64,000 nt of DNA, from NCBI GenBank assembly GCA_964624475.1, contig CAZUYC010000015.1:9124-73123 (forward strand), in the 5' to 3' direction. Below the pieces are notes generated by a model. That model made no database searches and had not been told where the DNA came from. It saw nothing but the letters and a program-made list of their open reading frames with translations. Below, piece by piece: positions 31,630-59,166 of this stretch (its first letter is position 1; each line of letters starts with the position of its first letter). The position numbers were made by a program, and so were the translations under genes. Source of the stretch: an uncultured Spirochaetales bacterium. Its GTDB lineage: Bacteria > Myxococcota_A > UBA9160 > SMWR01.

Positions 31630-31638
31630 TGGCGCATT

Positions 31639-33998: not shown

Positions 33999-34042
33999 CT
34001 CATTCCTCCCCGGCCTCCCTCGTGCGGCGAGTAGCGAGGTCA

Positions 34043-34094
34043 GGCCCGCTGACTCCGCTCGCCTGCGGCTCGCTGCGCGCTCCGCTTGCGGCGG
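34043..34094 (+). repeat. REP-like intergenic element, copy B
   Basis: GGCCCGctgaCTCCGCTCGcctgcggCTCGCTGCGCGctccgcTTGCggcgg, lying between the D-aminoacylase stop and the bhmt start. Confidence 0.55.
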
Positions 34095-34123
34095 CGTCCC
34101 GCGATCGCGCAACGCGCCTTATA

Positions 34124-35677
34124 TCACGGCCCCCTTCCTGCTTCCATCCCCGCGTCGACCGTCGGCTGTCTGCGGATCACCCGACCGGGCAGGCGGCCGG
34201 TCGTCCGGCCGTTCTCGTAGACGATCTCGCCGTTCACCCAGACCGTGTGGATCCCGACGGAGAGGGCGTGCGGTGCCTCGGGTGTGGCCCGGTCCAGCAC
34301 GCGGCTCGGATCGAAGAGGACCAGGTCGGCCGCCATCCCGGGAGCGATCGCACCGCGATCCCGGATTCCCACGTGGGCCGCCGCGAGCTGGCTCGCCTTG
34401 TGGACGGCGGTGGCGAGATCCAGGATCCGGCGCTCTCGCACGTAGCGCCCGAGAACGCGCGGATAGGAGCCGAATCCGCGCGGGTGGGACCCGGCGAGCG
34501 AGCCGTCCGTGCACAGGTTGGTGTGCGGCCAGCGCATGAGACGTTCGATGTCCGCCTCCTGCATGCTCGTGGCGATGACCGTCTCGACCTCCTCCTCCCC
34601 CGTCTCCTTCCGGAAGGCCTCGGCCTCGCGGATCAGCTCGACGAGCGTCGTCGCCGGATCGACGCCCCGCATCTCCGCCACTTCGCGCAGCGTCCTTCCC
34701 ACGTAGGCGGGATTGGGCTCGTACTCGCCCAGATAGGCCTGGTCCGGAGTGGTGATCTCGGAGAGGGCGAACGCCGCGGCCTCCAGATCCTCGAAGTTCC
34801 GGTCGGGAAAGAGCACGCTGAGGGTCGATTCCCAATAGGTGTAGGGATAGATGTCGGCCGTGACGTCTACCCCCGCCTCCCGCGCCTCGTCGAGGATCCG
34901 GATCAGATTCTCCGCCTTGCCGAGATTCCGGCGCAGGGCGAGCTTGATGTGCGAGATCTGCACCGGGATCGCGGCCTCGCGTCCGATGCGGAGGATCTCC
35001 TCGATCGCGTCCCAGAAACGGCGATCCTCGCTCCGGATGTGGCTGATGTAGCGCCCCCCGGCCCCGGCGGCCTCGCGCGCCAGCGCGAGCACCTCCTCGG
35101 TAGTGGAGTAGATCCCCGGGTCGTACTCCAGGCCCGTGGCCAGACCGAGCGCGCCCGCCGCCATCTCGCTCCGCAGCAGCGCGCGCATCCGATCGATCTC
35201 GTCCGACGCAGCCGGGCGCCGGAACTCCTCGCCCAGGACCCGCTGCCGGATCGTCCCGAAGCCGGCGTAGGAGGCGACGTTGATCGCGGCGCCCTCCCGC
35301 TCCAGTCGGAGGAAGAAGTCCTCCAGCGGGTAGGGCGACTCGCCGTCCTGCCCGACGATCACGCTGGTGATCCCCTGGCTGACCGCGGCCAGGGCCTCGG
35401 GATGCTCCGGGAGATCGGCGTCCGCATGGCTGTGGGTGTCGATCCAGCCGGGTGCCAGGGTCCGTCCGCCCGCGTCGACGAGCGAGTCCCGAGGCGACGT
35501 CTCGATGGATCCCACCGCGGCGATGCGGTCGCCGACGATGCGCACCGACGCGGGGCGGGGCGGTGCCCCGGTTCCGTCGAGGACGCTCGCGTTCACGATC
35601 AGCGTCGAGCGCGTGCCGTCCGCGGCCCCGGCACAGGCGGTCAGCACCAGGATCGAGAGGAGCGCGCTGGGTCTCAC
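34124..35677 (-). CDS. N-acyl-D-amino-acid deacylase (D-aminoacylase) family amidohydrolase, lipoprotein
   Basis: GTG 35677 overlaps the upstream stop (GTGA at 35674-77). Lipobox LLSILVLTAC. Motifs ..GWIDTHSHAD.., ..GRYISHIRSE.., ..VQISHIK.., ..CTDGS... Confidence 0.85.
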   Translation of the reverse strand: MRPSALLSILVLTACAGAADGTRSTLIVNASVLDGTGAPPRPASVRIVGDRIAAVGSIETSPRDSLVDAGGRTLAPGWIDTHSHADADLPEHPEALAAVSQGITSVIVGQDGESPYPLEDFFLRLEREGAAINVASYAGFGTIRQRVLGEEFRRPAASDEIDRMRALLRSEMAAGALGLATGLEYDPGIYSTTEEVLALAREAAGAGGRYISHIRSEDRRFWDAIEEILRIGREAAIPVQISHIKLALRRNLGKAENLIRILDEAREAGVDVTADIYPYTYWESTLSVLFPDRNFEDLEAAAFALSEITTPDQAYLGEYEPNPAYVGRTLREVAEMRGVDPATTLVELIREAEAFRKETGEEEVETVIATSMQEADIERLMRWPHTNLCTDGSLAGSHPRGFGSYPRVLGRYVRERRILDLATAVHKASQLAAAHVGIRDRGAIAPGMAADLVLFDPSRVLDRATPEAPHALSVGIHTVWVNGEIVYENGRTTGRLPGRVIRRQPTVDAGMEAGRGP

Positions 35678-37827
35678 TTGGCCCCGGCCGTGCGCTCTCC
35701 CTTCAGATACCTGCCGAACCAGGCCAGGTAGCGCCCGCTCAGGTCCCTGGCGTGCGACGGGGTGTCGATGCCGTGAGACTCGTCCGGGTAGACCACCAGC
35801 TCGCTGGGCACGCCCCGCAGCTTGAGCGCCAGGAAGAGCTGCTCCGAGTTGATGATGGGGACGTTCCAGTCCTCCTTGCCACCCAGAATCAAGGTAGGCG
35901 TCACGACCCGCTCGACCCGGTTGAAGGGCGAGAGCTTCTCGTAGAGCTGCCGGCCCTCGGGCGTCCAGGGCAGGCCGAGCTCGTCGACCCACCAGCGCTG
36001 GTAGTGGTCGTGGCCGAAGTTCGTCACGTAGAGCGTGGCGCTCGCGCCGGTGGCCGCCGCCTTGAAGCGCTCGGTCCGCGTGATGACGTGATTGGTGAGC
36101 ATGCCCCCGTAGGACCAGCCGGTGACGCCGAGGCGCTCGGAGTCGGCCCAGCCTTGGTTGACGACGTAATCCACCGCGGCCAGCACGTCCTCGTAGTCCC
36201 GCTCGCCCCAGGCCTGCCAGATCGCCAGGCAGAAGTCCTGGCCGTATCCGGTGGAGCCCCTGGGATTGGGCATGACGACGACGTATCCGTTCGCGGCGTA
36301 GAGCTGGCCCTCGAAATTGAAGCTCCAGTCGTGCTGTGCCTGGGGTCCGCCGTGGATCAACAGGATGCCCGGGTAGCGGCGGCCGGAGGAGAAGCCCGGC
36401 GGCTTGATGACGAAGGCCTCGATCTCGGTGCCGTCCCGGCTGGGGAAGCGGATCTCCGCCACCTCGCCGAGGCGGAGGGAAGCCAGCACTTCGTCGTTCA
36501 CGTGGGATCGCCGCTCGAGCTTGCCATCGGCGAGCAGGAAGACCTCGCCCGGCAGATGGGGCTCGGAGACCAGGGCGGCGATCGCGCCGGACGGACCCTG
36601 ATCGAAGGCGCTCACCATGCGAGAACCGTCGACCAGTCGGACGAGCTCGCCTCCGGACGGGGAGACGCGAGCCAGGTTCTGCTCGCCGCTGTCCTCGAGG
36701 AGGAAGGTGATCGAATCCCCGCGCCTGGAGAATCGGGGCTGGGAGATCATGCGGTCGAGATCCTGGGTCAGCAGCTTCGAATCGCCGCCCGCCGGCGAGG
36801 AGATCGCCAGATGGTAGGTGGCGTAGAGGGCGGTGCTGTCCGTCTCCGTGTTCGACGTATGCGCGATGAGCTTGCCGTCGGGGCTCCAGCTCGGTGCGGC
36901 GTCGGATCCGGGATTGCTCGTGACCCGGAGCAGGCGGGCTCCCCGATCGCCCTTGTCGGCATCCACCACCCAGATGTCGGTGTTGTAGTTGGCATCGGGG
37001 TCGTCCGTGCGATTGCTGACGAAGGCGATCCGGGTGCCGTCCGGCGACCAGGCGGGCTGCGAGCTCTCGCAGCCGGGAAGGGTGGACTCGCAGTAGTCGT
37101 CGAAGTCGCCCGATGTGATCTGCTGGATCTTCTTCGTGGCCAACTCGAGGACGTAGAGGTGGTTGCGGCGGCTGTCGAGGTAGCCGACGTAGTCCTGCTT
37201 GAACTGCCGGCGGGTCACGACCCAGGGCGGCGGCGTCTTCTTCTCGTACTCCTCGCCCTTCTCCTCGGCCTGCTGGGCTTCGAGCTCCTCGGGCCTGGGA
37301 TCCTTCAGGACCAGGAGCATTCGCTTGCCGTCCGGCGACCACTCGAAGAACTCGACCTTCTGCGCCGTGTCGGTGAGCTGGACGGCCTCGCCGCCCTCCC
37401 GAAAGAGGGTCCAGACCTGTCTCTTTTCCTCCGCGTCCTCGTCCTCGCCTGCGCCCCGGGAGCTCAGAAAGGCCAGGTACCGGCCATCGGGGCTCCAGCG
37501 GGGAGAGGAGGAGTCCTCGTCCTTCGCGGACAGGGGGAGCGCCTCGCCGCCGCCGGCCGGCACCATCCAGATCCGGGTCTTCGATTCGTCCTCCTTCAGG
37601 TCCTGGGTCGCGACGGTGTAGGCGACCCAGCGACCGTCCGGTGAGATCCGCGGGTCTCCCACCTGCCGGAGGGCGAACTGGTCGTCCACCGCGAGCAGGC
37701 GGCGTTCGCTGCCGGCAGCGGCGGCACGAGATGCCGTCGCCGAGAGCGCCGACCAGACGCCGTAAAACAGGCCGCAGAGCAGGGCAGGCGCCGCGAGTCC
37801 CAGCAATGCCCTGCGTTCGGTTCTCAC
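35674..37827 (-). CDS. S9-family serine peptidase with TolB-like propeller (acylaminoacyl-/prolyl-oligopeptidase type)
   Basis: 717-aa ORF with an N-terminal signal or anchor. Blades ISPDGRWVAYT, WSPDGRYLAFL, WSPDGKRMLLV, WSPDGTRIAFV, WSPDGKLIAHT. GWSYGGM nucleophile and ..YPDESHGI.. His. Confidence 0.9.
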   Translation of the reverse strand: MRTERRALLGLAAPALLCGLFYGVWSALSATASRAAAAGSERRLLAVDDQFALRQVGDPRISPDGRWVAYTVATQDLKEDESKTRIWMVPAGGGEALPLSAKDEDSSSPRWSPDGRYLAFLSSRGAGEDEDAEEKRQVWTLFREGGEAVQLTDTAQKVEFFEWSPDGKRMLLVLKDPRPEELEAQQAEEKGEEYEKKTPPPWVVTRRQFKQDYVGYLDSRRNHLYVLELATKKIQQITSGDFDDYCESTLPGCESSQPAWSPDGTRIAFVSNRTDDPDANYNTDIWVVDADKGDRGARLLRVTSNPGSDAAPSWSPDGKLIAHTSNTETDSTALYATYHLAISSPAGGDSKLLTQDLDRMISQPRFSRRGDSITFLLEDSGEQNLARVSPSGGELVRLVDGSRMVSAFDQGPSGAIAALVSEPHLPGEVFLLADGKLERRSHVNDEVLASLRLGEVAEIRFPSRDGTEIEAFVIKPPGFSSGRRYPGILLIHGGPQAQHDWSFNFEGQLYAANGYVVVMPNPRGSTGYGQDFCLAIWQAWGERDYEDVLAAVDYVVNQGWADSERLGVTGWSYGGMLTNHVITRTERFKAAATGASATLYVTNFGHDHYQRWWVDELGLPWTPEGRQLYEKLSPFNRVERVVTPTLILGGKEDWNVPIINSEQLFLALKLRGVPSELVVYPDESHGIDTPSHARDLSGRYLAWFGRYLKGERTAGAK

Positions 37828-37974
37828 GAGGGGTCCCTCCTGGATGGTCGCCGTGGGCCGGCGCTAGCATACTGCGAGCCAGCCCCCCGTGGACCCACGG
37901 TCCGGGGATCTCAGGCAGCCGACCGCACCGGCCGAAGGGATGCGCGGGGGCGCTATCCTGCTGCGGGGGCCGAC

Positions 37975-39411
37975 ATGAGCGATAGCGTGGCGAGAGTACA
38001 CGTCGGGGGCACACCGACGAACGTGCGTCCCAAGCGCGAGCTGGGCAGGGTCCAGGCCGCGGAGCAGCCCTTCGAGTACCCGCTCCGGCGCGAGTACGTC
38101 GAGCCGGACTGGACGCGCCTGCCCGGCTTCGCGGAGGTGACGAAGCCGGACTGGGAGTCGGCCCAGTGGCAGCGGAAGCACACGGTGAAGAACCTCGCCG
38201 AGCTCAAGCGGGCGCTCGGGCACCACCTGGGCGACGATCTCTACGCCGACATCGAACGCGACCAGCGGGAGCGCGCCACGATGTCGATGCTGATCCCCCC
38301 CCACATGATCAACACGATGGACGAGCGCGACCTGCGCGGCGACCCCGTCCGTCTCTACATGGCGCCGGCCTTCAGCGACCGGGACCCCGAGTGGCCGAGC
38401 CACCCGATGGCGAGCCGCGACTCGCTGCACGAGGCCGACATGTGGGCCGTGGAAGGGCTCACCCACCGCTACCCCACCAAGGTCCTCGCCGAGATGATCC
38501 CGACCTGCCCGCAGTACTGCGGGCACTGCACGCGGATGGATCTCGTCGGCAACGACACCTCGCAGGTCCTCAAGTACAAGTTCGAGCGCAAGCAGCAGGA
38601 CCGCTGGGACGCGATGCTCGACTACCTGGCCCGGACCCCGTCCGTTCGCGACGTGGTGGTGTCGGGCGGCGACGTCGCGAACGTGCCGATCAAGCGCCTG
38701 CAGGAGTGGCTGTTCAAGCTGATGGACCTGCCGAACATCCGCGACGTGCGCCTGGCGACCAAGGGGGTGATGGGCATCCCCCAGCACTTCCTCCAGGACG
38801 AGGTGCTCGCGGGCTACGAGGCCATCGCGAAGCGCGCTCGCGAGCGCGAGATCGAGATCGCGATCCACGCGCACGTGAACTCGGCGCAGCAGGTGACGCC
38901 GCTCTTCGGAAGGGCCGTGCGGGCCCTCCTCGACATGGGCTACCGCGCCGTCCGCAACCAGGGCGTGCTGCTGCGCGGAGTCAACACGACGCCGAACCAG
39001 CTCCTCGAGCTGTGCTTCATGCTGATGGACCACGCGAAGGTGGTCCCCTACTACTTCTACCTCTGCGACATGATCCCGAACGCCGAGCACTGGCGGCTCG
39101 CGCTCTGGGAGGCGCAGGAGCTGCAGATGGCGATCATGGGCTATCTGCCGGGCTTCACGACGCCGAGGTTCATCTGCGACGTCGCGTTCGTCGGCAAGCG
39201 CTGGGTCCACATGGTGAACTCGTACGACCGGGTGAACGGCATCTCGTACTGGCGGAAGAACTACCGCACGGGCATCGAGCACGACGATCCGGAGGCCCTC
39301 TCCCGCGAGTACCCGGCGTACGACCCGATCTCCACCCTGCCCGACGCGGGCAAGGAGTACTGGCGGCGCTACCTCGGCGAGCAGGGCGGCAAACGAGCCG
39401 AGTCGGCTTGA
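37975..39411 (+). CDS. kamA: Lysine 2,3-aminomutase (KamA-family radical SAM/PLP enzyme, long form)
   Basis: 478-aa ORF. CPQYCGHCTR is the CxxxCxxC cluster motif in the KamA context (..GLTHRYPTKVL..), together with ..VVVSGGD... The Asp residues in LCD and ICD align with the epsilon-amino-binding Asp residues of clostridial KamA (QCD, VVD). Confidence 0.85.
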   Translation: MSDSVARVHVGGTPTNVRPKRELGRVQAAEQPFEYPLRREYVEPDWTRLPGFAEVTKPDWESAQWQRKHTVKNLAELKRALGHHLGDDLYADIERDQRERATMSMLIPPHMINTMDERDLRGDPVRLYMAPAFSDRDPEWPSHPMASRDSLHEADMWAVEGLTHRYPTKVLAEMIPTCPQYCGHCTRMDLVGNDTSQVLKYKFERKQQDRWDAMLDYLARTPSVRDVVVSGGDVANVPIKRLQEWLFKLMDLPNIRDVRLATKGVMGIPQHFLQDEVLAGYEAIAKRAREREIEIAIHAHVNSAQQVTPLFGRAVRALLDMGYRAVRNQGVLLRGVNTTPNQLLELCFMLMDHAKVVPYYFYLCDMIPNAEHWRLALWEAQELQMAIMGYLPGFTTPRFICDVAFVGKRWVHMVNSYDRVNGISYWRKNYRTGIEHDDPEALSREYPAYDPISTLPDAGKEYWRRYLGEQGGKRAESA

Positions 39412-39431
39412 GGAGCAGGGAGACCCGCCTC

Positions 39432-40823
39432 ATGCCCACGCAGGAATCCCTGGAGTCCTCCGCGGCGTCCGTCATGCCGCCCCCGTATCCGGGCGAGTAC
39501 CCCAAGATCGTGGTCTCGCCGCCGGGCCCGAAGGCCAGGGCGTGGAACGCCCGGGACCGGAAGGTCGTCTCACAGAACCTGACGCCGGACTACGAGCTGG
39601 TCGTCGACCGCGCCTCGGGGATGGTGGTCGAGGACCTGGACGGAAACCGCTACCTCGACTTCGCGGCCGGCATCTCCACCGCGTCCACCGGGCACTGCCA
39701 TCCCGAGGTGGTGAAGGCGATCCAGCAGCAGGCCGAGCGCCTGCTCCACATCTGCTACACCGACTTCCACTACCCGGCCTACATCGAGCTCTGCGAGACG
39801 CTCGCGCAGCTGGCGCCGATGTCCGGGCGCAAGCGCGTATTCCTGTCGAACTCCGGGGCGGAGGCGGTGGAGACGGCGATCAAGCTGGCGCGCGTCCGCA
39901 CCGGCCGGCAGAAGATCGTCGCGTTCTACGGCGCCTTCCATGGCCGCACGCTGGGCACGCTGACGCTCACCGCCAGCAAGCCGGTGCAGCGGATCGGGTA
40001 CGGGCCGCTGCTGCCGGAGGTCTACCACACCCACTTCTCGTACTGTTATCGCTGCCCGGTCAACCGGAAGCCGGACTCCTGTGACGTCCAGTGCCTCGAC
40101 CTGCTGACCGACTCGATGTTCCAGCACACGGTCCCCCCGCAGGAGGTCGCGGCCGTGCTGGTGGAGCCCGTGCAGGGAGAGGGAGGCTTCATCCCTCCGC
40201 ACCCTGAATTCCTACCCCGCCTGCAGACCCTCTGCCGCGAGCACGGCATCCTGCTGATCGCGGACGAGGTGCAGTGCGGCATGGGCCGCACCGGCAAGCT
40301 CTTCGCCTCCGAGCACTTCGGGCTCGACCCGGACATCTTCATCCTGGCCAAGGGGATCGCGTCGGGACTGCCGATCTCGGCCGTGATCGCGCGGGACGAG
40401 GTGATGAAGTGGAACGACGGGGGTCACGGCAGCACCTTCGGCGGCAACCCGCTGTCCTGTCAGGCGGCGCTGGCCACGCTGCGGCTCTTGCGCGGCGGTC
40501 TGATCGACAATGCAGGCCGGGTCGGAGCGGGGCTGCTCGCGAAGCTGCGCGGACTCATGGACCGGCATACGCTGATCGGCGACGTGCGCGGCATCGGCCT
40601 CATGATCGGGATCGAGATCGTGCGCGATCGCGATACGAGGGTGGCGGCACCGGACGAGCGCCAACGCATCGTCCGCCGGGCGTTCGAGCGGGGCCTGCTC
40701 ACGCTCCCGTGCGGGAAGTCGACGATCCGCCTCTCCCCGCCGCTGATCTGCACCGACTCCGATGCGGACAAGGCGGTATCGATTCTCGACGAGGTGCTGA
40801 CCGAGATCAGCGCCGAGCGCTGA
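39432..40823 (+). CDS. Class-III (GabT/ornithine/omega-type) PLP aminotransferase
   Basis: ATG 39432 in frame within ORF 38166..40823, 20 nt after the kamA stop. Motifs ..SNSGAEAVE.., ..FHGRT.., ..[15 protein letters not shown].., ..ILAKGIASG.. (PLP Lys), ..STFGGNP... Confidence 0.9.
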
Positions 40824-40830
40824 GCGCGGC

Positions 40831-40846
40831 GCCGAGCCGGCTCGGC
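40831..40846. terminator. Perfect 16-nt GC palindrome after the aminotransferase stop
   Basis: gccgagccggctcggc lies 8 nt after TGA 40821-23, between convergent operons. There is no U-run. Confidence 0.3.
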
Positions 40847-40847
40847 C

Positions 40848-40903
40848 GGCCCGAGAACTCCGCTCGGCTTCGCCTCGCTGCGCGCGCGCTCCGCGCGCTT
40901 GCC
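40848..40903 (+). repeat. REP-like intergenic element, copy C (best-preserved)
   Basis: GGCCCGagaaCTCCGCTCGgcttcgcCTCGCTGCGCG, then hairpin gcgcgcg-ctc-cgcgcgc, then TTGCC. Confidence 0.6.
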
Positions 40904-40904
40904 G

Positions 40905-42254
40905 TCACTTCGGGAGATTCTCCACGAACCTCGCCGAGGTCGAGGCGCGGACCTGCTCCAGGCCGACGCCGGGCATCAGCTCGATCAGGCAGAGCTCGCC
41001 CCGATCGAAGGAGAACACCGCGAGTTCCGTGATGACCATGTCGACCGCGTTGCGGGCCGTGAGCGGCAGATCGCATTCGGAGACCAGCTTCGGGCTCCCG
41101 TCGGGGTTGGTGTGGGTCATGGTGATGATGAGCCGCTTGGCTCCCGAGGCCAGGTCCATCGCGCCGCCGACGCCGAGCAGCGGCTTCCCCGGCACCGCCC
41201 AGTTCGCCAGGTTCGCGCCTGCATCCACCTGTAGTCCGCCCATGATGGCCACGTCCACGTGGCCGCCGCGGATCATGGCGAAGGAATCCGCGCTGTCGAA
41301 GTAGCTGGCTCCCGGCAGCGCGGTGACCGGGATCTTGCCGGCGTTCACCGGGTACTCCATCGCCCCGCCCTCCGCGGGCGCGGGGCCCACGCCCAGCATT
41401 CCGTTCTCGCTGTGCAGGATGATCCCGTGCTCTGGCGTGATCAGATCGGCCACCAGGGTGGGAATGCCGACTCCGAGGTTCACCACGTCACCGCTGCGGA
41501 GCTCGGCCAGCGCGCGGCGGGCCATGTTCATGCGCGCCGGATCCACCTTCCTGCCGCTCGACGCCACCGAGGCGGAGGAGCCCAGCTCCTCGAGGGTCAT
41601 GCGGGCCTGGACCAGATAATCCACGTAGCAGCCCGGGGTGTGGACGTGGTTGGGATCGATCTCGCCCAGCGGCACGATCGTCTCCACTTCGGCGATGACC
41701 AGGTCGGCCGCCGTCGCCATCGCCTTGTTGAAGTTCTGCTCGGTCATCCGGTAGACCAGGTTGCCGGCGGTATCGGCCTTCCAGGCGCGCAGGAAGGCCA
41801 CGTGGCCGCGCAGCCCCGGCACGAACACGTGCGGCTTGCCGCAGAGGATCCTCGTCTCCGCCTTCTCGGCGATGACCGTCCCGACCGAGGTCGGGGTGAA
41901 GAATCCACCGATCCCCGCGCCGCCCGCGCGCAGCGCCTCGGCCAGCGAGCCCTGGGGCAGGAGCTCCACCTCCAGGGTCCCCCGCTGTGCCGCCGCCACG
42001 GCCTCGGGATTGCTGGTGAAGAACGAGCCGATCGCCTTCTTGATCTGTCCGCTGCGCAGGAGCCGTCCACCGCCCAGCCCGACCTCGCCCACGTTGTTGG
42101 CGATGTAGACGAGCTCCCGCACGCCGGTCTCGGCCAGCGCGTGCAGGAGGTGGACCGGGTTCCCGGTCATGCCGAAGCCGCCGACCAGGATCGTGTCGCC
42201 GGTCTTGACCATGGCCACGGCCTGCTCGAGGGAGATCTGGGGAACTCGTTTCAC
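40905..42254 (-). CDS. 3-oxoacid CoA-transferase, fused A+B subunits
   Basis: GTG 42254, 7 nt after the thiolase stop. The N-terminal half has ..[15 protein letters not shown].. (subunit A). The C-terminal half has ..[10 protein letters not shown].. (SENG catalytic Glu, subunit B). Confidence 0.85.
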
Positions 42255-42261
42255 GCTGGGT

Positions 42262-43542
42262 CTACAGCCTCTCGATGACGGCGGCTTCCCCCTGACCCAC
42301 ACCCACGCACAGGGTGGCCAGGCCATGCCGCACGGGTTCGCCGAGACCAGCGCGGCGGTGCATCTCGTGGATCAGGGTGGTGAGGAGCCGGGCACCCGAG
42401 CATCCGAGCGGATGCCCCAGGGCGATGGCGCCGCCGTTCACGTTGGTGATGTCCTGGCCGAGCCCGAGCTCCCGCAGCACCGCGATGGACTGGACCGCGA
42501 ACGCCTCGTTGAGCTCGGCGAGCTGGATGTCGGCCAGCGAGAGCCCCGCACGGGCGAGCGCCTTCTGGGTGGCGGGCACCGGCCCGAGCCCCATCACGCG
42601 CGGGTCCACCCCCGCCGCGGCAGAGCCCATCCAGCGCGCCAGCGGCCGGAGCCCGAGCTCGCGGGCCCGGCGCTCGGACACGAGCACCAGGGCAGCGGCG
42701 CCGTCGTTCGTTCCGCTCGAGTTTCCCGCCGTCACGGTTCCACCGGGTCGGAACACGGGCTTCAGCCTCGAGAGCTGGTCCAGGTCGGTCGAGAGCCGGA
42801 ACTCGTCTCCCGTGCGCGTGTACCGGGGAAACTCGTCCGTATCGAAGAGGATGGGATCGCCGCGGCGCTGCGGCACGGCGACCGGGACGATCTCCCGCCG
42901 GAAGCGACCGTCCTGGATCGCCTGCACCGCCCGCGACTGGCTCTGCAGGGCGAACGCATCCTGCTCCTGCCGGGTGATCTCGCCGTCCTTGATCTTCCCT
43001 TCCCGGCTCATCTGCTGGATGTTCTCTGCGGTCTCCCCCATCGACTCGAGGGGAAAGAGCGCTTCCAGCGCGGGGTTCGGGAATCTCCAGCCGAGCGTGG
43101 TGTCGTAGGCGGTGACGTTGCCCGAGGGTCCGAACGCCTGCGGATTCTTCGGCAGCGCGTACGGCGCGCGCGTCATGCTCTCGACGCCGCCCGCCACGTA
43201 CAGCTCGCCTTCCCCGGCCCGGATGGCTCGCGCCGCCTGGTTGACCGCCGAAAGCCCGCTGGCGCACAGGCGGTTGACCGTCACGCCGGGAACGGAGTGC
43301 GGCAGCCCCGCCAGCAGGAGCCCCATCCGCGCGACGTTCCGGTTGTCCTCCCCGGCCTGGTTCGCGCAGCCCATGAACACTTCTTCGACCTGGGCGCCGT
43401 CCACCTCCGCGCGGCGGACGGCCTCGCGTATCACCAGGGCCGCCAGGTCGTCGGGACGCACCTGGGCGAGCGCCCCGCGGATCTGGCCGATGGGCGTGCG
43501 CACCGCGCTCACGATCACCACCTCGTTCATGACTCCGTTCAT
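42262..43542 (-). CDS. Acetyl-CoA C-acyltransferase (thiolase)
   Basis: ATG 43542 (or 43530). ..[12 protein letters not shown].., ..VNRLCASGL.. (Cys nucleophile), ..[19 protein letters not shown]... Confidence 0.9.
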
Positions 43543-43872
43543 GACTCGACTCCGCTTCGCCTCCGCCGGGCTCGTTGAAGGCGCGCCCAACGGGGCAGAG
43601 CTTAGACCTCCGCCGTCCTCGGGTCACGCGAGGCGGGTGAGACGCGCCCCCCTGCCGTCCGGGGGGTCGTCGCGGCGGCCCGCTGTCTCTGCGAGGCGCG
43701 GCGAGCGTGCGCCCAGGAGGGATGGACTGCTGCCGTCCAGCAGATCTCCGCGGCGGCACGTAGCTCGCCTCGTGCGCGGGCCCCGTGAACGACCCGCGAA
43801 TCGCGCGTTCCTGAACCACGATTCTTCGGAGCCGGACCCGGGCACCGCGGAGCTTCCCAAGAGTCGTTTGAC

Positions 43873-43901
43873 TTGACGAAAACACTACATAGCACTAATC
43901 T
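43873..43901 (+). promoter_or_regulatory. Candidate sigma70-type promoter giving a leaderless RAYT transcript
   Basis: TTGACG (43873-78), then 17 nt, then TAATCT (43896-901). The ATG at 43909 lies 7 nt downstream and no SD is present. This is the only strongly AT-rich patch in this intergenic region. Confidence 0.3.
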
Positions 43902-43908
43902 ATCGGTG

Positions 43909-44607
43909 ATGCGACGGGCGCCGAGGCAGCTCACCTTCCACGAGCACCGGATGCGCTCGGGTCGAGGTGGCCCGAGGCCCGGCGCGGGGCGCCCGCGCCT
44001 GTCGGCGAACCCGCCCGTCCACCACGTCCGGCGTCCGCCGGTCCCCCGCGACTGCCCTTCCCACGTCACGCTGCGGCTGCTCCGGGGCCTCCCCGCGCTC
44101 CGAAGCCGCCGCTTCTTGCGCGAGCTGCGCGCGAGCCTGCGGGAGGCCTGCGCGCGCCGCGGCTTCCGCGTGGTGCACTACACCGTGCAGCGCAACCACC
44201 TCCACCTGTTCGTCGAGGCCGCGGGCAAAGAGGCCCTGGGTCGCGGCATGAAGGCGATCTCGGCCCGGGTCGCCCGCGCCGTGCAACGCGCCTTCGGCCT
44301 CAGAGGCCCGGTCCTTCACGGTCGCTACCACCTGCGCGTGCTGCGCACCCCGCGAGAGGTCCGGAACGCGCTGGCCTACGTCCTGCTCAATGCGCGCAAA
44401 CACTGGCGCGAGCGCCACGGCTCGCCGCCCCCGGAGCGTCTCGACGAGGCGTCCTCGGGCCGCTGGTTCCAGGGCTGGCGTCGAGCGTTCGGCTCGCGCG
44501 AGTCTCCGCCCGAGCGCCCCGAGGTCGCACCGCCCCGGACATGGCTCCTCGCGGCCGGCTGGCGCCGCCACGGCCTCATCGATCCCGCGGAGGTTCCCGG
44601 CGGCTGA
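43909..44607 (+). CDS. IS200/IS605-like Y1 HUH transposase, RAYT-like (REP-associated tyrosine transposase type)
   Basis: Frame of ORF 43873..44607. ..VHVTLRLLRGLPALRS.., ..FRVVHYTVQRNHLHLFVEA.. (HUH motif), ..REVRNALAYVLLNARKH.. (catalytic Tyr helix). Confidence 0.8.
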   Translation: MRRAPRQLTFHEHRMRSGRGGPRPGAGRPRLSANPPVHHVRRPPVPRDCPSHVTLRLLRGLPALRSRRFLRELRASLREACARRGFRVVHYTVQRNHLHLFVEAAGKEALGRGMKAISARVARAVQRAFGLRGPVLHGRYHLRVLRTPREVRNALAYVLLNARKHWRERHGSPPPERLDEASSGRWFQGWRRAFGSRESPPERPEVAPPRTWLLAAGWRRHGLIDPAEVPGG

Positions 44608-44639
44608 CGGGAGCGGGTCGAGCGGAGCGGGAGTCGCGG

Positions 44640-44801
44640 GATTGGAAGCCCTCCGCCTACAGTGGCGAGCGCCTTCCTCGTCCCCGGCAACCCCGCCGCT
44701 ACAAGGACAAGGTCCGCCGCAAGATCGCCGCCTATCACCGCTTCGTGCAGCTCGGCTGCCGGAATTTCTCGCGGATCCCGCCGCGCCGGGTGACGTGGTG
44801 A
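44640..44801 (+). other. Orphan high-GC3 ORF fragment without start codon (possible mobile-element gene relic)
   Basis: DWKPSAYSGERLPRPRQPRRYKDKVRRKIAAYHRFVQLGCRNFSRIPPRRVTW*. By my count most third codon positions are G/C, unlike the alternative frames. No family recognised. Confidence 0.3.
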
Positions 44802-45078
44802 AATTCGTCGGCCGAATCCGAAGCCCAGACATCCTGCGCGCTTACGAGCGCGCTGCATGACGCTCAGCGCCGCTCAACTCGCTACTCTCCATAATCGAAC
44901 AGGACTAGCATTTTGCCACATATCATAGTGAAATCATCTCATGCGAGAGCCCGCTCTCAAATGCCCTCTTGCGCGCCGGACGGCGACAGCTATTTCAACC
45001 TGTTCGTTGTTCGAAGCCGCCGACCGCAGAGGCGGCTTCATCGAGCGCTGGCGAATGCCGAGCGAATAGAGGTCAATC

Positions 45079-45594
45079 ATGGCGCAGGTCGGAACCTTGG
45101 CGTGGGCGCGCAAAACCGGCGGGCGGCTGCGCTTCCAGGATTGCGTGCGGTTGACCGGGCTTGCGGGCGCTGTGGTTTGGCTGCCGCGCCAACGCATCCT
45201 CATCGCCGGCGACACGGTTGTTTGGCCGATTCCGTATGAGTTCGACGTCTATCCCGCGGACAATATCGCTACGCTTGAGCGCCTGCGCGCTTACAATTAC
45301 CGTGCGCTCGTTCCAGGCCATGGCGAAGTGCAACGCGACAAGGCTTATTTGGATCTGCTGATCGCGTTCATGCGCGAAGTGCGTACGCAAATGGTGCCGC
45401 TGATCCAGCAGGGACTGACGGTCGAGGAAGCGACAGCACGCCTTACGCTTGATTCCAATGCACAGGCTTTCGCCGGCGAAGATCCCTGGCTGCGCTATTG
45501 GTTCCGCGAATATGCAATTGGCCCCTTCGCCGAGAGCGCCTACCGCGAAGCCAAGGGCGAACCGCTCGGGCCCGCGCCACCCGCCGCCTCATAA
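45079..45594 (+). pseudogene. C-terminal fragment of a metallo-beta-lactamase-fold protein
   Basis: ..AVVWLPRQRILIAGDTVV.., ..LVPGHGEV.. match the distal MBL motifs. The HxHxDH region is absent (in-frame TAG immediately upstream), and the position of the third His motif reads TGLAGA. Markedly lower GC. Confidence 0.5.
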
Positions 45595-45689
45595 GGGGCA
45601 ACGTATCTGTTTAGCGGGTCTCCTGCCGTGACGCCGTAGCGGCTGTCGGACGCCGACCGCTTCCACTCGATTCCAACCCCGCCATCTCG

Positions 45690-45959
45690 GTGGTCCGGCG
45701 CTTTCTGCGCTGCGGGCAGCCGGGCTGCGCCTGCCAGAAGCCCGGCGCCCAGGGCCACCGCCCCTACCACTACCTGGTCGTCACCCAGGCCCCGGGGAAG
45801 ACCGCGTCGGTCCTGCTCGCCCCGGGCCAGGTCGCGCGCGTGCGCCGCTGGACGCGAGACTTCAAACGACTCAAGCAGCTGCTCGAGCGCATCTCCCGGC
45901 TCAACACCCGGCTGATCCGGCTCGAGCGCGAGGCGCAGCGGCGCCAGGGCCGGCGGTGA
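45690..45959 (+). CDS. Small zinc-ribbon protein of the CG.P.C.C...HGPY type (DUF6788-like, transposon-associated from memory)
   Basis: ..VVRRFLRCGQPGCACQKPGAQGHRPYHYLVVTQAPGKTASVLL.. followed by a coiled-coil tail. GTG start. The frame is open upstream to 45615. Confidence 0.45.
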   Translation: MVRRFLRCGQPGCACQKPGAQGHRPYHYLVVTQAPGKTASVLLAPGQVARVRRWTRDFKRLKQLLERISRLNTRLIRLEREAQRRQGRR

Positions 45960-46168
45960 CGGCGGAGCGCCCGCGCTGCGCGGAATGCTCCCGGCTGCGG
46001 CGCGAAAACCGTCGGCTCCAGCAGCAGGCCGAGCGGCTCGCTCAAGTGTTGCCGATCGCGTCGAAGCGCCGAAAAATGAACACCGGGCCGGCGAGCTCGG
46101 ATAGCCTCCGCTCCGGACTCGTCAAGGCGCTGCGCGCCTCCTCCGCTTCGCTCTGGCCCTTCGGGTGA
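45956..46168 (+). pseudogene. Truncated N-terminus of a transposase (IS66-like leucine-zipper / PPSSD region)
   Basis: GTGA-coupled to the previous ORF. ..RCAECSRLRRENRRLQQQAERLAQVL....NTGPASSDSL.. resembles the C..C, zipper and (K)PPSSD layout. No catalytic domain follows. Confidence 0.4.
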
Positions 46169-50565: not shown

Positions 50566-50581
50566 GATCCAGGGCGTTCCC

Positions 50582-51757: not shown

Positions 51758-51763
51758 CTCGCC

Positions 51764-56197: not shown

Positions 56198-57568
56198 ATG
56201 CCCTCCGGCACGGAAACCCGCTACCCCTCGGGCCACGTTCTCTACCGGCGCCTCAACAGGCACTACCCGCGCATCGTGCGCGGTGACGGCTGCTGGCTCA
56301 CCGACGATCGCGGCAGGCGCTACCTGGACGCCTCCAGTGGCGCGCTGGTCACCAACCTCGGACACGGCAATGCGGAGGTGGCGCGAGCCGTGGGCGAGCA
56401 GGCGGCGCGCCTGGCCTACGTGAACGGCACGGCCTTCACCCACGACGCCATCGAAGAGCTCGCCGCCGAAGTGGCCGCCCTCTGTGCCGAAGGTCTCGAC
56501 AAGACGCTGTTCCTGTGCAACGGCGGCGATGCCGTGGAGGCCGCGCTCAAGATCTCGCGGCAGTTCTGGGCGGAATCGGGCCGGCCCGAGAAGCGGAAGA
56601 TCGTGGCCCTGACGCCGAGCTACCACGGGAACACGCTGCTCGCCCTCTCGGCGTCGGCCAGGCCGGGCTACCAGGAGCTCTTCCGGGACTGGCTGGTCGA
56701 GATCCACACGGCGCCGGCGCCCTATGCGTACCGCTGCTCGTGCCGCGGGGAGGCCGAGGAGTGCCCGGCCTGCAGCGGCGCCGCCGTGGAGCAGGCGATC
56801 CTGCGGGATGGGCCCGAGACGGTGGCGGCCTTCATCGCCGAGCCGGTGGGCGGGAGCTCGACCGGCGCGTCGGTGCCGCGTCCGGGCTACTGGAGGAAGG
56901 TCCGCGAGATCTGCGACCGCTACGAGGTGCACTTCGTCGCCGACGAGGTTCTCGCCGGCGCCGGCCGCACGGGCACCTGGTCGGCGCTGGAGCCCTACGG
57001 CGTCGCGCCGGACTTCCAGATCTTCGGCAAGGGGATCGCGGGAGGCTACGCCCCGTTGTCGGCGCTGGTGACGTCGCGTCGCATCCTCGACGTCCTGGCC
57101 GCGGGCTCCGGCGCCCCCCTGCACAACCAGACCTTCTCCCAGTTTCCGGTCTCCTGCGCGGCCGGCCTGGCGACCCTCCGCCAGATCAAGGCCCAGGGGC
57201 TCCTCGCGCGCTGCGCGAGCATGGGGACCGTCCTCTTCCAGCGCCTGGCCGAGCTGCTGGACCATCCCCACGTAGGAGACCTCCGCGGACGGGGGCTCCT
57301 CGCCGGCATCGAGTTCGTCGAGGACAAGGCGTCGCGCAAGCCCTTCGACCGGAGCCTGCGGATGGCGGAGACCCTCGGCGAGACGGCGCAGGAGGCCGGC
57401 CTCGTGCTGTGGACGCATGCCGGGCAGGCGGATGGCGGGGGCGGAGACCTGATCCTGATCGGCCCCCCGTTCATCATCACGGAGGACGAGATCTCCGAGC
57501 TGGTGGGTCGGCTGCGGACGGCCCTCGACACGGCGATCGAGCGGATCCGGGATCGGAAGCGCCGCTAG
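56198..57568 (+). CDS. Class-III PLP aminotransferase (omega-transaminase-like)
   Basis: ..GALVTNLGHGN.., ..CNGGDAVEAALK.., ..YHGNT.., ..FVADEVLAGAGRTG.., ..IFGKGIAGGY.. (PLP Lys). Confidence 0.9.
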   Translation: MPSGTETRYPSGHVLYRRLNRHYPRIVRGDGCWLTDDRGRRYLDASSGALVTNLGHGNAEVARAVGEQAARLAYVNGTAFTHDAIEELAAEVAALCAEGLDKTLFLCNGGDAVEAALKISRQFWAESGRPEKRKIVALTPSYHGNTLLALSASARPGYQELFRDWLVEIHTAPAPYAYRCSCRGEAEECPACSGAAVEQAILRDGPETVAAFIAEPVGGSSTGASVPRPGYWRKVREICDRYEVHFVADEVLAGAGRTGTWSALEPYGVAPDFQIFGKGIAGGYAPLSALVTSRRILDVLAAGSGAPLHNQTFSQFPVSCAAGLATLRQIKAQGLLARCASMGTVLFQRLAELLDHPHVGDLRGRGLLAGIEFVEDKASRKPFDRSLRMAETLGETAQEAGLVLWTHAGQADGGGGDLILIGPPFIITEDEISELVGRLRTALDTAIERIRDRKRR

Positions 57569-57582: not shown

Positions 57583-59166
57583 ATGACGACGCCCGCATCC
57601 GACCCGATGAAGATCACCTACACGACCTCCGCAGCGGACATGGACCAGATCCACGAGGCCTTCGACGAGGCCCTCGCGAGGGTCCGCTCGGAGTGCGGGA
57701 GGGAGTACCCGCTCTACATCGACGGCAAGCCGGTGCGCTCGCAGACGCCGCCGATCGTCGACACCTCGCCCATCGACACGAGCCTCGTCCTCGGCGAGTT
57801 CGCTTCCGCCAGCGTCGAGCACGTCGACCAGGCCATCGAGTCCGCCTGCCGGGCCCGCCGGAAGTGGGAGAGTCTGGGCTGGCAGAAGCGCGTGACGATC
57901 ATGCGCAAGGCGGCGGAGCTGGTGCGCGCGAACAAATTCGAGCTCGCGGCCTGCATGAGCCTCGAGGTGGGCAAGAGCCGCCTGGAGTCCCTGGGGGACG
58001 CCGAGGAGTCCGCCGATCTCATCGACTATTACGCCGCGCAGATGGAGGAGGCCAGCGGCTTCCGCAGGAAGATGAACCAGCTCACGCCGATCGAGGACAA
58101 CACGGACCTGCTCCGGCCCTTCGGCGTGTTCGTCTGCATCGCACCCTTCAACTTCCCCCTGGCCCTGGCCGCTGGCATGTCCTCCGCCGCCCTGGTGGCC
58201 GGGAACACGGTCGTCTTCAAGCCGGCCCAGGACACGCCGTGGACCGGGCTGCGGCTCTACCACCTCTACCGGGAGGCGGGCGTCCCCGAGGACGTCCTCC
58301 ACTTCATCTCCGGGCGGGGCTCCGTCATCGGCGATGCGCTGTGGCAGCATCCCAAGGTCGACGGCGTCGTCTTCACCGGCTCCAAGGACGTGGGCATCCG
58401 GATGTTCAAGGGCTTCAGCACCCGGTGGGTCAAGCCCTGCCTGACGGAGCTCGGCGGGAAGAACGCCTGCATCGTGACGGAATCGGCGGATCTCGACGCC
58501 GCCGCCGAGGGTGTGATGAGGTCCGCCTGGGGGCTCCAGAACCAGAAGTGCAGCGCGTGCTCGCGGGTCTACGTGCACCGGAAGGTAGCCGAGGAGTTCA
58601 CCGCGAAGCTCATCGAGAAGACCCGGGCCATGACCATCGGCGACCCGACGAAGCGCAACGTGTTCTTCGGCCCGGTGATCAACCAGAACGCGGTCAGGAC
58701 GTTCGAACGCGCGGTGGAGATGGCTCGGAAGGACGGCTCGGTCCTGGTGGGCGGCAGGCGCATGACGGAGGGCGCCTTCGCCCGGGGCCACTACGTGGAG
58801 CCCACCATCGTCAAGGCACCCCTCTCGAGCCGGCTCTTCATGGAGGAGTTCTTCGTCCCGGTGCTCGCCATCGGGGAGATCGACTCCCTGGAGCAGGCGA
58901 TCGAGGAGACCAACAGGGCCGAGTACGGCCTCACGGCCGGGCTCTTCTCGCACGATCCAGCGGAGGCGGAGAAGTTCTTCGACGAGATCGAGGCGGGTGT
59001 CACCTACGTGAATAAACGCAGCGGCGCGACCACCGGCGCCTGGCCGGGCGCCCAGGCCTTCTGCGGCTGGAAGGGCTCCGGATCCAGCGGAAAGGGCGGC
59101 TGCGGCCCCTACTACGTGATGCAGTTCATGCGCGAGCAGAGCCGCACCGTGATCGAGACGCGCTAG
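57583..59166 (+). CDS. Aldehyde dehydrogenase, L-glutamate gamma-semialdehyde (P5C) dehydrogenase-like (RocA/PruA type)
   Basis: ATG 57583 with GAGGAGG upstream. ..PFNFPLA.., ..TELGGKNA.., ..NQKCSACSR.. (Cys nucleophile). The C-terminus ..TGAWPGAQAFCGWKGSGSSGKGGCGPYY.. resembles the RocA-type tail. Confidence 0.85.
   Translation: MTTPASDPMKITYTTSAADMDQIHEAFDEALARVRSECGREYPLYIDGKPVRSQTPPIVDTSPIDTSLVLGEFASASVEHVDQAIESACRARRKWESLGWQKRVTIMRKAAELVRANKFELAACMSLEVGKSRLESLGDAEESADLIDYYAAQMEEASGFRRKMNQLTPIEDNTDLLRPFGVFVCIAPFNFPLALAAGMSSAALVAGNTVVFKPAQDTPWTGLRLYHLYREAGVPEDVLHFISGRGSVIGDALWQHPKVDGVVFTGSKDVGIRMFKGFSTRWVKPCLTELGGKNACIVTESADLDAAAEGVMRSAWGLQNQKCSACSRVYVHRKVAEEFTAKLIEKTRAMTIGDPTKRNVFFGPVINQNAVRTFERAVEMARKDGSVLVGGRRMTEGAFARGHYVEPTIVKAPLSSRLFMEEFFVPVLAIGEIDSLEQAIEETNRAEYGLTAGLFSHDPAEAEKFFDEIEAGVTYVNKRSGATTGAWPGAQAFCGWKGSGSSGKGGCGPYYVMQFMREQSRTVIETR

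Follow-up and report, generated by a model that had tools for sequence, protein, structure and literature searches.

Gene content of the kamA locus

The gene cluster described here lies in a 64-kb window (GC about 70%), the whole stretch of DNA that was analysed, on contig CAZUYC010000015.1 of an uncultured bacterium from the Myxococcota_A lineage. Its first gene, kamA, encodes a divergent lysine 2,3-aminomutase and is followed by the gene of a class III aminotransferase, AT3#1. A two-gene operon for a 3-oxoacid CoA-transferase (CoAT) and a thiolase (Thl), together the CoAT-Thl pair, converges on these two genes, and a second class III aminotransferase (AT3#2) and an aldehyde dehydrogenase (ALDH) are encoded further downstream (Table 1). 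Judged by its gene families and by the neighbours of related kamA genes, this cluster probably degrades lysine via beta-lysine without the usual B12-dependent enzyme.

Open reading frames (ORFs) were called with a home-made filter on the GC content of third codon positions (GC3), and some starts or small genes may be wrong. The ORFs of kamA, AT3#1, CoAT and Thl are all real, with GC3 values of the coding type (0.89-0.96). An earlier reading of this DNA from its letters alone, called the sequence-only reading below, had described a class III aminotransferase gene 20 nt after kamA and, converging on the pair, an operon of a CoA-transferase with a SENG motif and a thiolase; the coordinates confirm this arrangement. 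The 20-nt gap runs from the kamA stop to the AT3#1 start, which is preceded by the Shine-Dalgarno-like GGAGCAGGGAG with a GGAG resembling a ribosome-binding site (RBS). The short gap and the RBS argue for co-transcription of the two genes. On the opposite strand, CoAT begins with a GTG 8 nt downstream of the thiolase stop. The palindromic spacer between the converging operons was not called by a consensus terminator scan. Across positions 37600-44000, scans for sigma-70 promoters and intrinsic terminators gave nothing above shuffled expectation, a consensus scan being uninformative for a high-GC host. The whole window contains no Rfam element, lysine riboswitch included, at the gathering threshold, and 37600-38200 contains none at E<=1.

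About 45 window ORFs were scanned against Pfam and NCBIfam families. For comparison, 80 genomic KamA-family loci were fetched and their neighbours clustered, and 80 metagenome loci seeded with the KamA of locus L078 were added. The survey covers 165 KamA-family loci in total, with B12-route genes counted within 9 kb. Surveyed loci are given L-numbers and the window is W. The group of close relatives is taken as W, L001, L004-L010, L014 and L085, with KamA identities of 77-93%. Locus L078 comes from a metagenome-assembled genome (MAG) of the Streptosporangiaceae, L088 from Vicinamibacteria and L090 from Gemmatimonadaceae.

Table 1. Genes and other features of the window, with the kamA cluster listed before its neighbours.
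Feature	Position	Strand	Basis
kamA, divergent lysine 2,3-aminomutase (radical SAM/PLP), 478 aa	37975..39411	+	2A5H match, CPQYCGHCTR, orthologue neighbours
AT3#1, class III aminotransferase of GabT/ornithine omega-aminotransferase type, 463 aa; proposed beta-lysine 6-aminotransferase	39432..40823	+	NF004426, 7VNO, synteny
Spacer between converging operons, GC-rich, palindromic, 81 nt; possible bidirectional terminator	40824..40904	.	read from sequence
CoAT, fused A+B family-I 3-oxoacid CoA-transferase with SENG glutamate; proposed succinyl-CoA:3-oxoadipate CoA-transferase	40905..42254	-	TIGR02428/TIGR02429
Thl, thiolase nearest to 3-oxoadipyl-CoA thiolases (PcaF/PaaJ-like), 426 aa	42262..43542	-	NF006551/TIGR02430, PDB
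AT3#2, class III omega-transaminase of BioA/amine:pyruvate type; proposed 3-aminoadipate (beta-amino) transaminase	56198..57568	+	NF005685, PDB, synteny
ALDH, P5C-dehydrogenase-like; proposed 3-amino-6-oxohexanoate dehydrogenase	57583..59166	+	NF002852, 3QAN
S9 (prolyl-oligopeptidase/Dpp5-like) peptidase, divergent from kamA, first gene of its operon	35674..37827	-	family scan
IS200/REP-associated Y1 transposase-like, at the point where CoAT-Thl is cut off from the other cluster genes	43873..44607	+	weak PF01797 and NF047646 matches
CrtI/amine-oxidase-like	48958-50565	+	family scan
DAO/MTOX (sarcosine-oxidase)-like	50582-51757	+	family scan
GcvT-like	51758-52954	+	family scan
CrtI-like, two genes	52954-54543 and 54540-56093	+	family scan

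Identity of KamA

The window KamA is, with high confidence from its residues and its relatives, a beta-lysine-forming lysine 2,3-aminomutase, because its key residues are invariant in the family and its orthologues adjoin kdd-kamD-kamE-kal. The protein aligns to the lysine 2,3-aminomutase (LAM) of Clostridium subterminale (PDB 2A5H) with E=3e-40. In the LAM structure, we take D293 and D330 to bind the epsilon-ammonium group, R134 the alpha-carboxylate and K337 the pyridoxal phosphate (PLP). D365 and D402, the Asp residues in YLCDM and FICDV of the window KamA, stand opposite both LAM Asp residues. The motif C178-P-Q-Y-C182-G-H-C185 matches the CxxxCxxC pattern of the radical S-adenosylmethionine (SAM) [4Fe-4S] cluster, and R187 comes directly after the third Cys (CTR), as in LAM. 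K408 falls one position ahead of LAM K337 in the pairwise alignment, where a one-residue shift is plausible. Across 78 members of the KamA family, C178, C182, C185, R187, D365, D402 and K408 are invariant whatever the neighbouring genes, including members encoded beside kdd-kamDE. The conservation of both Asp residues, noted beside the CPQYCGHCTR motif, had already been taken to indicate a basic substrate rather than glutamate, and the 2A5H alignment and the invariance among these 78 members bear this out. A role as a glutamate or 2-aminoadipate aminomutase is ruled out, since neither Asp varies in the family and the kamDE-linked orthologues have the same two residues.

Among the 80 genome loci, kamA divergently adjoins kdd, kamD, kamE and kal in about 25, which belong to Actinomadura, Intrasporangium, Knoellia, Nocardioidaceae and Streptosporangiaceae and whose KamA is 61-66% identical to that of the window. 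The order kal-kamE-kamD-kdd also stands beside kamA in most of the 80 metagenome loci. These kamA-adjacent genes encode a Kdd matching NF052381 with 249.8 bits (cut-off 200), a KamD matching PF09043 (E=2e-238), a KamE composed of OAM_dimer and B12-binding domains (PF16554, PF02310) and a Kal-like hot-dog protein. No kce was found near kal-kamE-kamD-kdd in the two loci L109 and L111.

By its profile scores, the window KamA is a member of a divergent clade outside the coverage of curated models rather than a textbook member of its family. It reaches 167.5 against TIGR03820 (AblA; cut-off 525.4) and 164.2 against TIGR00238 (KamA family; cut-off 199.2), and no Pfam family, Radical_SAM included, matches it at 1e-5. 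The family is nevertheless large and conserved, with more than 8000 matching database clusters, and its best 120 matches are 77-93% identical and come from MAGs labelled Myxococcota and Actinomycetota. A clade of about 8000 homologues falls under every NCBIfam cut-off for the KamA family, yet its sources label it 'lysine 2,3-aminomutase', which amounts to an annotation-model gap.

In other lineages, a convergent GNAT acetyltransferase gene follows kamA of this family, namely in the Myxococcales loci L039, L041-L043, L046 and L048 and in L114, L117, L128, L134 and L142. An extra KamA paralogue, 25-30% identical, is encoded upstream in the Myxococcales loci, and a PLP enzyme of Cys/Met metabolism is also present on the contigs from soil Actinomycetota. 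From gene content, these loci resemble an AblA/AblB-style system for N-acetyl-beta-lysine or, alternatively, the opening part of the Pseudomonas B4 pathway considered below.

Replacement of the B12 route at kamA loci

The genes found beside kamA fall into two sets that exclude each other. Within 9 kb of kamA, 84 of the 165 loci carry genes of the B12 route, 14 carry AT3#1-type, ALDH or crotonase genes, and none carries both; in other words, no locus among these 98 combines kdd-kamDE with the AT3#1-type set. The 14 replacement loci come from two phyla, and in about 67 further loci the KamA family stands alone. Such an either/or pattern implies that one downstream module replaces another for the same intermediate.

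The replacement is most compact in Actinomycetota. In L078, TetR, crotonase, ALDH, aminotransferase (AT3) and kamA genes form a tight operon, with the gene of an ADP-forming acyl-CoA synthetase (ACD) in divergent orientation. In L143 and L144, the set ACD-AT3-ALDH-crotonase occupies the very position, divergent from kamA, that kal-kamE-kamD-kdd holds elsewhere, and partial versions of this set cut by contig ends occur in L141, L146 and L169. The KamA of L143-type loci is 73-78% identical to that of L078. Because this lies inside the 71-84% range of KamA proteins encoded beside kdd-kamDE, the L143-type enzyme should act on the same substrate as the kamDE-linked ones. A P5C-dehydrogenase-like ALDH always accompanies the aminotransferase in the Actinomycetota kamA-AT3 loci, whereas no second aminotransferase, CoA-transferase or thiolase is found in these kamA-AT3-ALDH operons.

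In the window itself, tblastn with queries from related loci finds no homologue of KamD, KamE, Kdd, Kal or GNAT proteins in the 64 kb; the first four are likewise missing by tblastn from the loci of the window clade. No BKACE/kce-type Pfam domain occurs among the roughly 45 ORFs scanned. The absence of kamDE, kdd, kal and kce noted by the sequence-only reading therefore holds for the window by these searches. As a genomic pattern, a B12-independent route from beta-lysine is well supported.

The aminotransferases and the aldehyde dehydrogenase

AT3#1 belongs with the omega-aminotransferases. It reaches 582.6 against the 'acetylornithine aminotransferase family' model NF004426 (cut-off 552) and 408 bits against GabT models, and the motifs of the PLP-binding Lys and the substrate Arg are conserved in its alignments to 7VNO and GabT structures. 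In the comparison of beta-transaminases with GabT and ornithine aminotransferase (OAT) proposed earlier, family models place it on the GabT/OAT side: no HemL model is among its top 25 families, all of which are of GabT, acetylornithine aminotransferase or OAT type. Its nearest solved structure is 7VNO (E=4e-113), which we take to be PH1423 of Pyrococcus horikoshii. PH1423 is classified as an ornithine delta-aminotransferase, with Lys, 6-aminohexanoate, 5-aminovalerate and 4-aminobutyrate (GABA) as further amino donors to 2-oxoglutarate (PMC9986279). Identity between AT3#1 and the closest relative that has been characterised is no more than about 45-50%.

Of 9 informative loci among the close relatives, 8 have an AT3#1 orthologue (83-91% identical) behind kamA, either directly or past an inserted mttB-family gene. 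The L078 aminotransferase is 49% identical to AT3#1 and belongs to the same NF004426 subfamily (535.8 bits). Against the actinobacterial GabT model it scores 358 bits, far under the cut-off of 639, and it is therefore not the housekeeping GabT.

For ALDH, the best family is 1-pyrroline-5-carboxylate (P5C) dehydrogenase (P5CDH), in the window as in L078; the best model of succinic-semialdehyde dehydrogenase (SSADH) gives only 303 and 307, respectively. The best PDB match of the window ALDH is the Bacillus P5CDH 3QAN (E=2e-96), and the protein is 49% identical to the ALDH of the crotonase-ALDH-AT3-kamA operon of Actinomycetota (L078). Its second aminotransferase partner, AT3#2, scores 436 against NF005685, below the cut-off of 485, and has omega-transaminases as its nearest structures.

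Both genes are, on the evidence of gene order, part of the same syntenic cluster as the kamA genes. In L007, the order is near-contiguous (kamA-gcvT-crtI-crtI-<CoAT-<Thl-AT3#2-ALDH), with a 75% identical AT3#2 orthologue directly after CoAT-Thl. ALDH orthologues also share contigs with orthologues of kamA or AT3#1 in at least four more assemblies, in which contigs were paired by equal size (85263, 38374, 26093 and 18641 bp).

The converging CoA-transferase and thiolase

CoAT passes the models of both subunits, with 292.8 against TIGR02428 (cut-off 243.55) and 210 against TIGR02429 (cut-off 128.5), and its closest structures are succinyl-CoA:3-ketoacid CoA-transferases (SCOT; E=1e-105). By these matches it is a member of the PcaIJ/ScoAB family, nearest to the succinyl-CoA-dependent SCOT enzymes. 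The top NCBIfam models of Thl are 3-oxoadipyl-CoA thiolases (NF006551, 526 bits; TIGR02430, 512 bits), about 125 bits over the models of acetoacetyl-CoA thiolases. Among structures, Thl matches 1ULQ first (2e-141), PcaF structures rank second to fifth (6PCA, 1e-123), and acetoacetyl-CoA thiolases follow at about 1e-105.

Only five loci, all in one clade, have CoAT-Thl less than 10 kb from kamA. The pair comes next to AT3#1 in W, L004 and L085, with a membrane-protein gene between in L004; in L006 it follows the second crtI gene (crtI-b), and in L007 it is flanked by crtI-b and AT3#2-ALDH.

The Y1 transposase-like gene and a DUF6788 gene come right after the thiolase (43873-46168), and AbiEii and IS91 genes occupy the same junction in L085 (14334-17074). 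These genes suggest that the junction is a recombination hot spot that split the cluster.

A proposed pathway through 3-aminoadipate

Tentatively, and at somewhat less than an even chance, we read the cluster as a route that attacks the C6 amino group of beta-lysine and leads through 3-aminoadipate and 3-oxoadipate to succinyl-CoA and acetyl-CoA. All six genes that such a route would use are present in the window. KamA would convert L-lysine to beta-lysine (3,6-diaminohexanoate), a step that follows from homology and the partners of its orthologues. Beta-lysine is ornithine with one additional CH2 before the carboxylate, and AT3#1 may treat it as a 'beta-homo-ornithine', passing the 6-amino group to 2-oxoglutarate to give 3-amino-6-oxohexanoate. 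This aldehyde would be in equilibrium with a five-membered cyclic imine (a pyrroline), much as P5C is. The P5CDH-like ALDH would oxidise it to 3-aminoadipate, and AT3#2 would turn 3-aminoadipate into 3-oxoadipate. From their families and synteny, CoAT is predicted to form 3-oxoadipyl-CoA from 3-oxoadipate and succinyl-CoA, and the PcaF-like Thl to cleave it into succinyl-CoA and acetyl-CoA, which would regenerate the CoA donor.

In Actinomycetota, the same first three steps would be followed by activation of 3-aminoadipate by ACD and deamination of the CoA ester by a crotonase-type lyase. The family matches of this crotonase include paa-pathway hydratases, which lend the last step weak support.

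The choice of the 6-amino group over the 3-amino group rests partly on the ALDH partner, which implies an aldehyde; only transamination of the 6-amino group yields one. The sequence-only reading had proposed 3-amino transamination to 6-amino-3-oxohexanoate and a closed pathway of four enzymes. The concept of a B12-independent route survives in the pairing of KamA with AT3#1 in place of kamDE. The proposed chemistry is not favoured by an omega-type AT3#1, an ALDH partner and a thiolase of 3-oxoadipyl-CoA type, and the four enzymes are joined by AT3#2 and ALDH in one syntenic cluster.

Taken more broadly, and with still less assurance, the loci may represent an oxygen-compatible, B12-independent pathway of soil and sediment bacteria. 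It would run from lysine through beta-lysine and 3-amino-6-oxohexanoate to 3-aminoadipate, continue either via 3-oxoadipate (in the Myxococcota-like clade) or via 3-aminoadipyl-CoA and a crotonase-type ammonia-lyase (in Actinomycetota), and serve as an evolutionary alternative to kamDE-kdd-kal at the kamA locus. In the window clade, N-epsilon-methylated lysines demethylated by the products of the mttB, gcvT and flavoprotein genes may perhaps feed it.

Evidence against the pathway and alternative explanations

Several observations weigh against the C6 pathway. Two of its enzymes score below the curated cut-offs of the families that give them their proposed roles: Thl (512 against 597 for TIGR02430; 526 against 605 for NF006551) and the window ALDH (434 against 648 for NF002852; 415 against 660 for TIGR01237), as does the L078 ALDH (384 for NF002852 and 346 for TIGR01237). 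ALDH and AT3#2 lie 17-18 kb from kamA, past the transposase-like gene. In L001 and L005, the 10 kb around kamA contain no CoAT-Thl, and the shorter flanks of L010 and L014 show none either. The loci of the window clade are closely related, so that their shared gene order represents few independent events. Acidobacteriota carry AT3#1 orthologues (72-75% identical) whose 10-kb surroundings contain no kamA, and the AT3#2-ALDH pair occurs without kamA in L088. In L090, an operon (8647-14677) combines an AT3#2-type enzyme, a P5CDH-like ALDH, an AT3#1-type enzyme and a two-subunit, Gct-sized CoA-transferase, again with no kamA within 10 kb. Since AT3#2-ALDH is present without kamA in both L088 and L090, the module is not specific to beta-lysine, and modules of this kind evidently handle other omega-amino compounds too. 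Genes of N-demethylation type (mttB, gcvT and flavoproteins) travel with kamA and are not accounted for by the C6 pathway. Finally, the six enzymes also fit an extended route of GABA type, and on paper the gene set alone does not decide between the two.

The L090 operon may belong to a route from cadaverine or 5-aminovalerate to glutaryl-CoA. Lacking kamA and having a CoA-transferase of another subtype, it was set aside as independent support and counted as a caution.

The alternative that survives best, although we consider it rather unlikely, keeps kamA and AT3#1 in a B12-independent route and makes CoAT-Thl an unrelated 3-oxoacid module, acting on acetoacetate or on 3-oxoadipate from another source and merely syntenic. 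The lack of the pair near kamA in L001 and L005, and in the shorter flanks of L010 and L014, speaks for it, as do the absence of the pair from all Actinomycetota kamA-AT3 operons, its opposite strand, the intervening membrane-protein gene of L004 and the close relationship of the loci that carry it. However, the pair stays by the cluster in five loci despite rearrangements, its family affinities fit the predicted product 3-oxoadipate, and no other pca, paa or ketone-body genes that would give it an alternative job were found among the scanned ORFs of the window.

It is less probable that the genes share no pathway at all, with KamA making beta-lysine for another use, such as the solute N-epsilon-acetyl-beta-lysine or a building block, and AT3#1 serving as a general transaminase of GABA, ornithine or 5-aminovalerate. 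The roughly 67 loci in which the KamA family stands alone, the GNAT genes beside kamA in Myxococcales (L039-L048) and in L114, L117, L128, L134 and L142, and the AT3#1 orthologues that lack kamA would all suit such a division. The window is moreover full of peptidase and amino-acid-catabolic genes, which makes any such neighbourhood cheap. Yet the 20-nt gap with its RBS argues for co-transcription, the pairing of KamA with AT3#1-type enzymes recurs across two phyla with three different gene orders, and the strict exclusion of kdd-kamDE (0 of 98 loci) is what functional replacement predicts.

Removal of the 3-amino group, the chemistry first proposed for this locus, now appears distinctly improbable. 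It would give 6-amino-3-oxohexanoate, which CoAT and Thl would convert to acetyl-CoA and 4-aminobutanoyl-CoA; in an extended form, the CoA would be passed on, GABA freed, and the other aminotransferase and ALDH would act as GabT and SSADH. This route draws on the same six cluster genes. The 408 bits of AT3#1 against GabT models, the omega-transaminase group of AT3#2, whose members often accept beta-amino acids, and the action of family-I CoA-transferases and thiolases on 3-oxoacids are all compatible with it. Its intermediates pose difficulties: 6-amino-3-oxohexanoate, a beta-keto acid with its free amine four atoms from the ketone, is expected to close to a pyrroline ring and to lose CO2, and 4-aminobutanoyl-CoA readily forms the lactam 2-pyrrolidone of its own accord. 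Pseudomonas B4 reportedly acetylates N6 first, which avoids both problems, and tblastn finds no GNAT gene in the window. The pairs kamA-AT3#1 and AT3#2-ALDH would each join non-consecutive steps, and the Actinomycetota operons would cover step one and the final two steps but lack everything in between. Transamination at C3 is thus disfavoured because AT3#1 is of GabT/OAT type, ALDH is P5CDH-like rather than GabD-like, Thl is PcaF-like and the intermediates should cyclise.

Relation to known pathways

The lysine fermentation pathway is said to have been set out by Kreimeyer et al. in 2007. In Clostridium and Fusobacterium, the classical route comprises KamA, KamDE, Kdd, Kce and Kal, with a CoA-transferase and a thiolase in the cluster too (PMC3149608). 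The window cluster shares its first enzyme, and the same KamA family stands beside kdd-kamD-kamE-kal in many Actinomycetota. It differs in lacking kamDE, kdd, kal and kce, in that a transaminase takes the place of the B12/PLP-dependent 5,6-aminomutase, and in its predicted products, succinyl-CoA and acetyl-CoA in contrast to acetoacetate and 3-aminobutyryl-CoA. A variant of the fermentation in 'Ca. Cloacimonas' uses Kat, a HemL-like 3-aminobutyryl-CoA aminotransferase, and still requires KamDE, Kdd and Kce (PMC3149608). Like the window cluster, that variant combines a class III aminotransferase with kamA-linked lysine breakdown, a thiolase and a CoA-transferase. A Kat-type role for AT3#1 is ruled out, AT3#1 being GabT/OAT-like and the window lacking KamDE, Kdd and Kce.

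The Actinomycetota variant recalls the degradation of beta-valine by BvaA and BvaB, which employs a CoA ligase and crotonase-family beta-aminoacyl-CoA ammonia-lyases (PMC4619459). An acyl-CoA synthetase and an enoyl-CoA-hydratase homologue are likewise encoded beside kamA-AT3-ALDH, although the synthetase is the ADP-forming ACD and not an adenylating ligase, and neither gene occurs in the window.

Ornithine catabolism by RocD and RocA offers a parallel for the predicted second and third steps: there too, an aminotransferase and then a dehydrogenase of these families work in turn on a diamino acid, by way of an amino-aldehyde that cyclises to a pyrroline. The differences lie in the 45-50% identity of AT3#1, the sub-threshold P5CDH scores of ALDH and a product that would be 3-aminoadipate instead of glutamate. 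The predicted last steps resemble the end of the beta-ketoadipate pathway (PcaIJ, PcaF): CoAT meets the cut-offs for pcaI/scoA and pcaJ/scoB, the best models of Thl are 3-oxoadipyl-CoA thiolases, and the genes form a two-gene operon. In contrast to that pathway, the A and B subunits are fused in the window as they are in animal SCOT, no genes of aromatic-ring catabolism lie nearby, and Thl, besides its sub-threshold score, is about 25 residues longer than the matching PcaF models (426 aa against profiles of 400-401).

A transaminative precedent is reported from Pseudomonas B4 (Barker laboratory, about 1979-81; EC 2.6.1.65), which is said to acetylate N6, transaminate C3 and use acetyl-CoA in a cleavage to acetoacetate and 4-acetamidobutyryl-CoA, ending at GABA. 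To our knowledge, its genes have not been identified, and it is the only transaminative beta-lysine route to have been described. The window cluster would share with it a B12-independent, transaminase-based catabolism of beta-lysine. It has no GNAT gene (by tblastn) or BKACE gene (among the scanned ORFs), and its families point to attack at C6.

A search of the accessible literature returned no relevant paper on 3-aminoadipate, 6-amino-3-oxohexanoate or 3-amino-6-oxohexanoate as lysine catabolites, or on beta-lysine together with 3-oxoadipate. The earlier impression that the route had not been described stands to the extent that neither the C3 nor the C6 version appears there, and is tempered by the reported Pseudomonas B4 precedent. 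With its enzymes drawn from known families, the predicted pathway is best classed as a variant of beta-lysine catabolism.

Neighbouring genes

Orthologues of the block at 48958-56093, which comprises the CrtI-like, DAO and GcvT-like genes, directly follow AT3#1 or kamA in L006, L007, L010 and L014. In 7 of the 11 close relatives (L001, L005, L006, L008-L010 and L014), a gene for a non-pyrrolysine MttB-family methyltransferase lies between kamA and AT3#1 (in L001 at 11441-12973), and a GcvT-like gene and two genes for CrtI/amine-oxidase-like flavoproteins come next. The window has no mttB, and its GcvT- and CrtI-like genes stand 8-15 kb downstream together with the MTOX-like DAO gene. One possibility suggested by this gene content is that N-epsilon-methylated lysines, released by the encoded peptidases, are demethylated to lysine before they enter the pathway.

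Directly after ALDH, the region 59210-61371 encodes a class I/II PLP enzyme and, overlapping and convergent, an ornithine-cyclodeaminase/mu-crystallin protein. After a generic aminotransferase model, the PLP enzyme next best matches two cyclising enzymes, VioD (capreomycidine synthase) and GntC, with sub-threshold scores of about 220 bits. By family, cyclic imines of basic amino acids are possible substrates for either protein.

On the other side of kamA, the S9-led operon continues with genes of an amidohydrolase, a protein with a Hcy-S-methyltransferase domain and an MFS transporter. The S9 peptidase gene keeps its divergent position in L004, L006, L008, L014 and L085. The whole divergent block (29023-37827, minus strand), which includes a TonB-dependent receptor gene, is mostly conserved in L004 and L085, and the AT3#2-ALDH-AT3-CoAT operon of L090 likewise has an S9 peptidase gene (43% identical product) in divergent orientation.

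The region 833-20412 of the window is rich in peptide-degrading genes, with products of the S9, S58/DmpA aminopeptidase, large amidohydrolase, M3-like and S15 X-Pro dipeptidyl-peptidase types. A 181-aa ORF at 13209-13754 corresponds to the C-terminal domain alone of an Orn/Lys/Arg decarboxylase and is possibly a remnant. A PIN-domain gene (8033-8431, minus strand) overlaps a small upstream ORF (8428-8694), the two probably forming a VapBC-type toxin-antitoxin pair.

Implications for lysine catabolism

Few parts of bacterial amino-acid metabolism are as branched as lysine catabolism. Its beta-lysine branch is, as far as we know, represented only by a strictly anaerobic, B12-dependent fermentation and by one description from Pseudomonas to which no genes are attached. 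If correct, the pathway proposed here would add a new route and the metabolites 3-aminoadipate and 3-oxoadipate to the map of lysine degradation. Because kamA loci carry one gene set or the other, a few recombinant enzymes would allow a direct test of this hypothesis, and the pathway would supply enzymes for beta-amino dicarboxylic acids and for chemicals of the adipate family from lysine. Many annotations as 'GABA aminotransferase' and 'P5C dehydrogenase' would have to be corrected. The pathway would also explain the thousands of 'lysine 2,3-aminomutase' genes that aerobic Actinomycetota and Myxococcota carry without kamDE.

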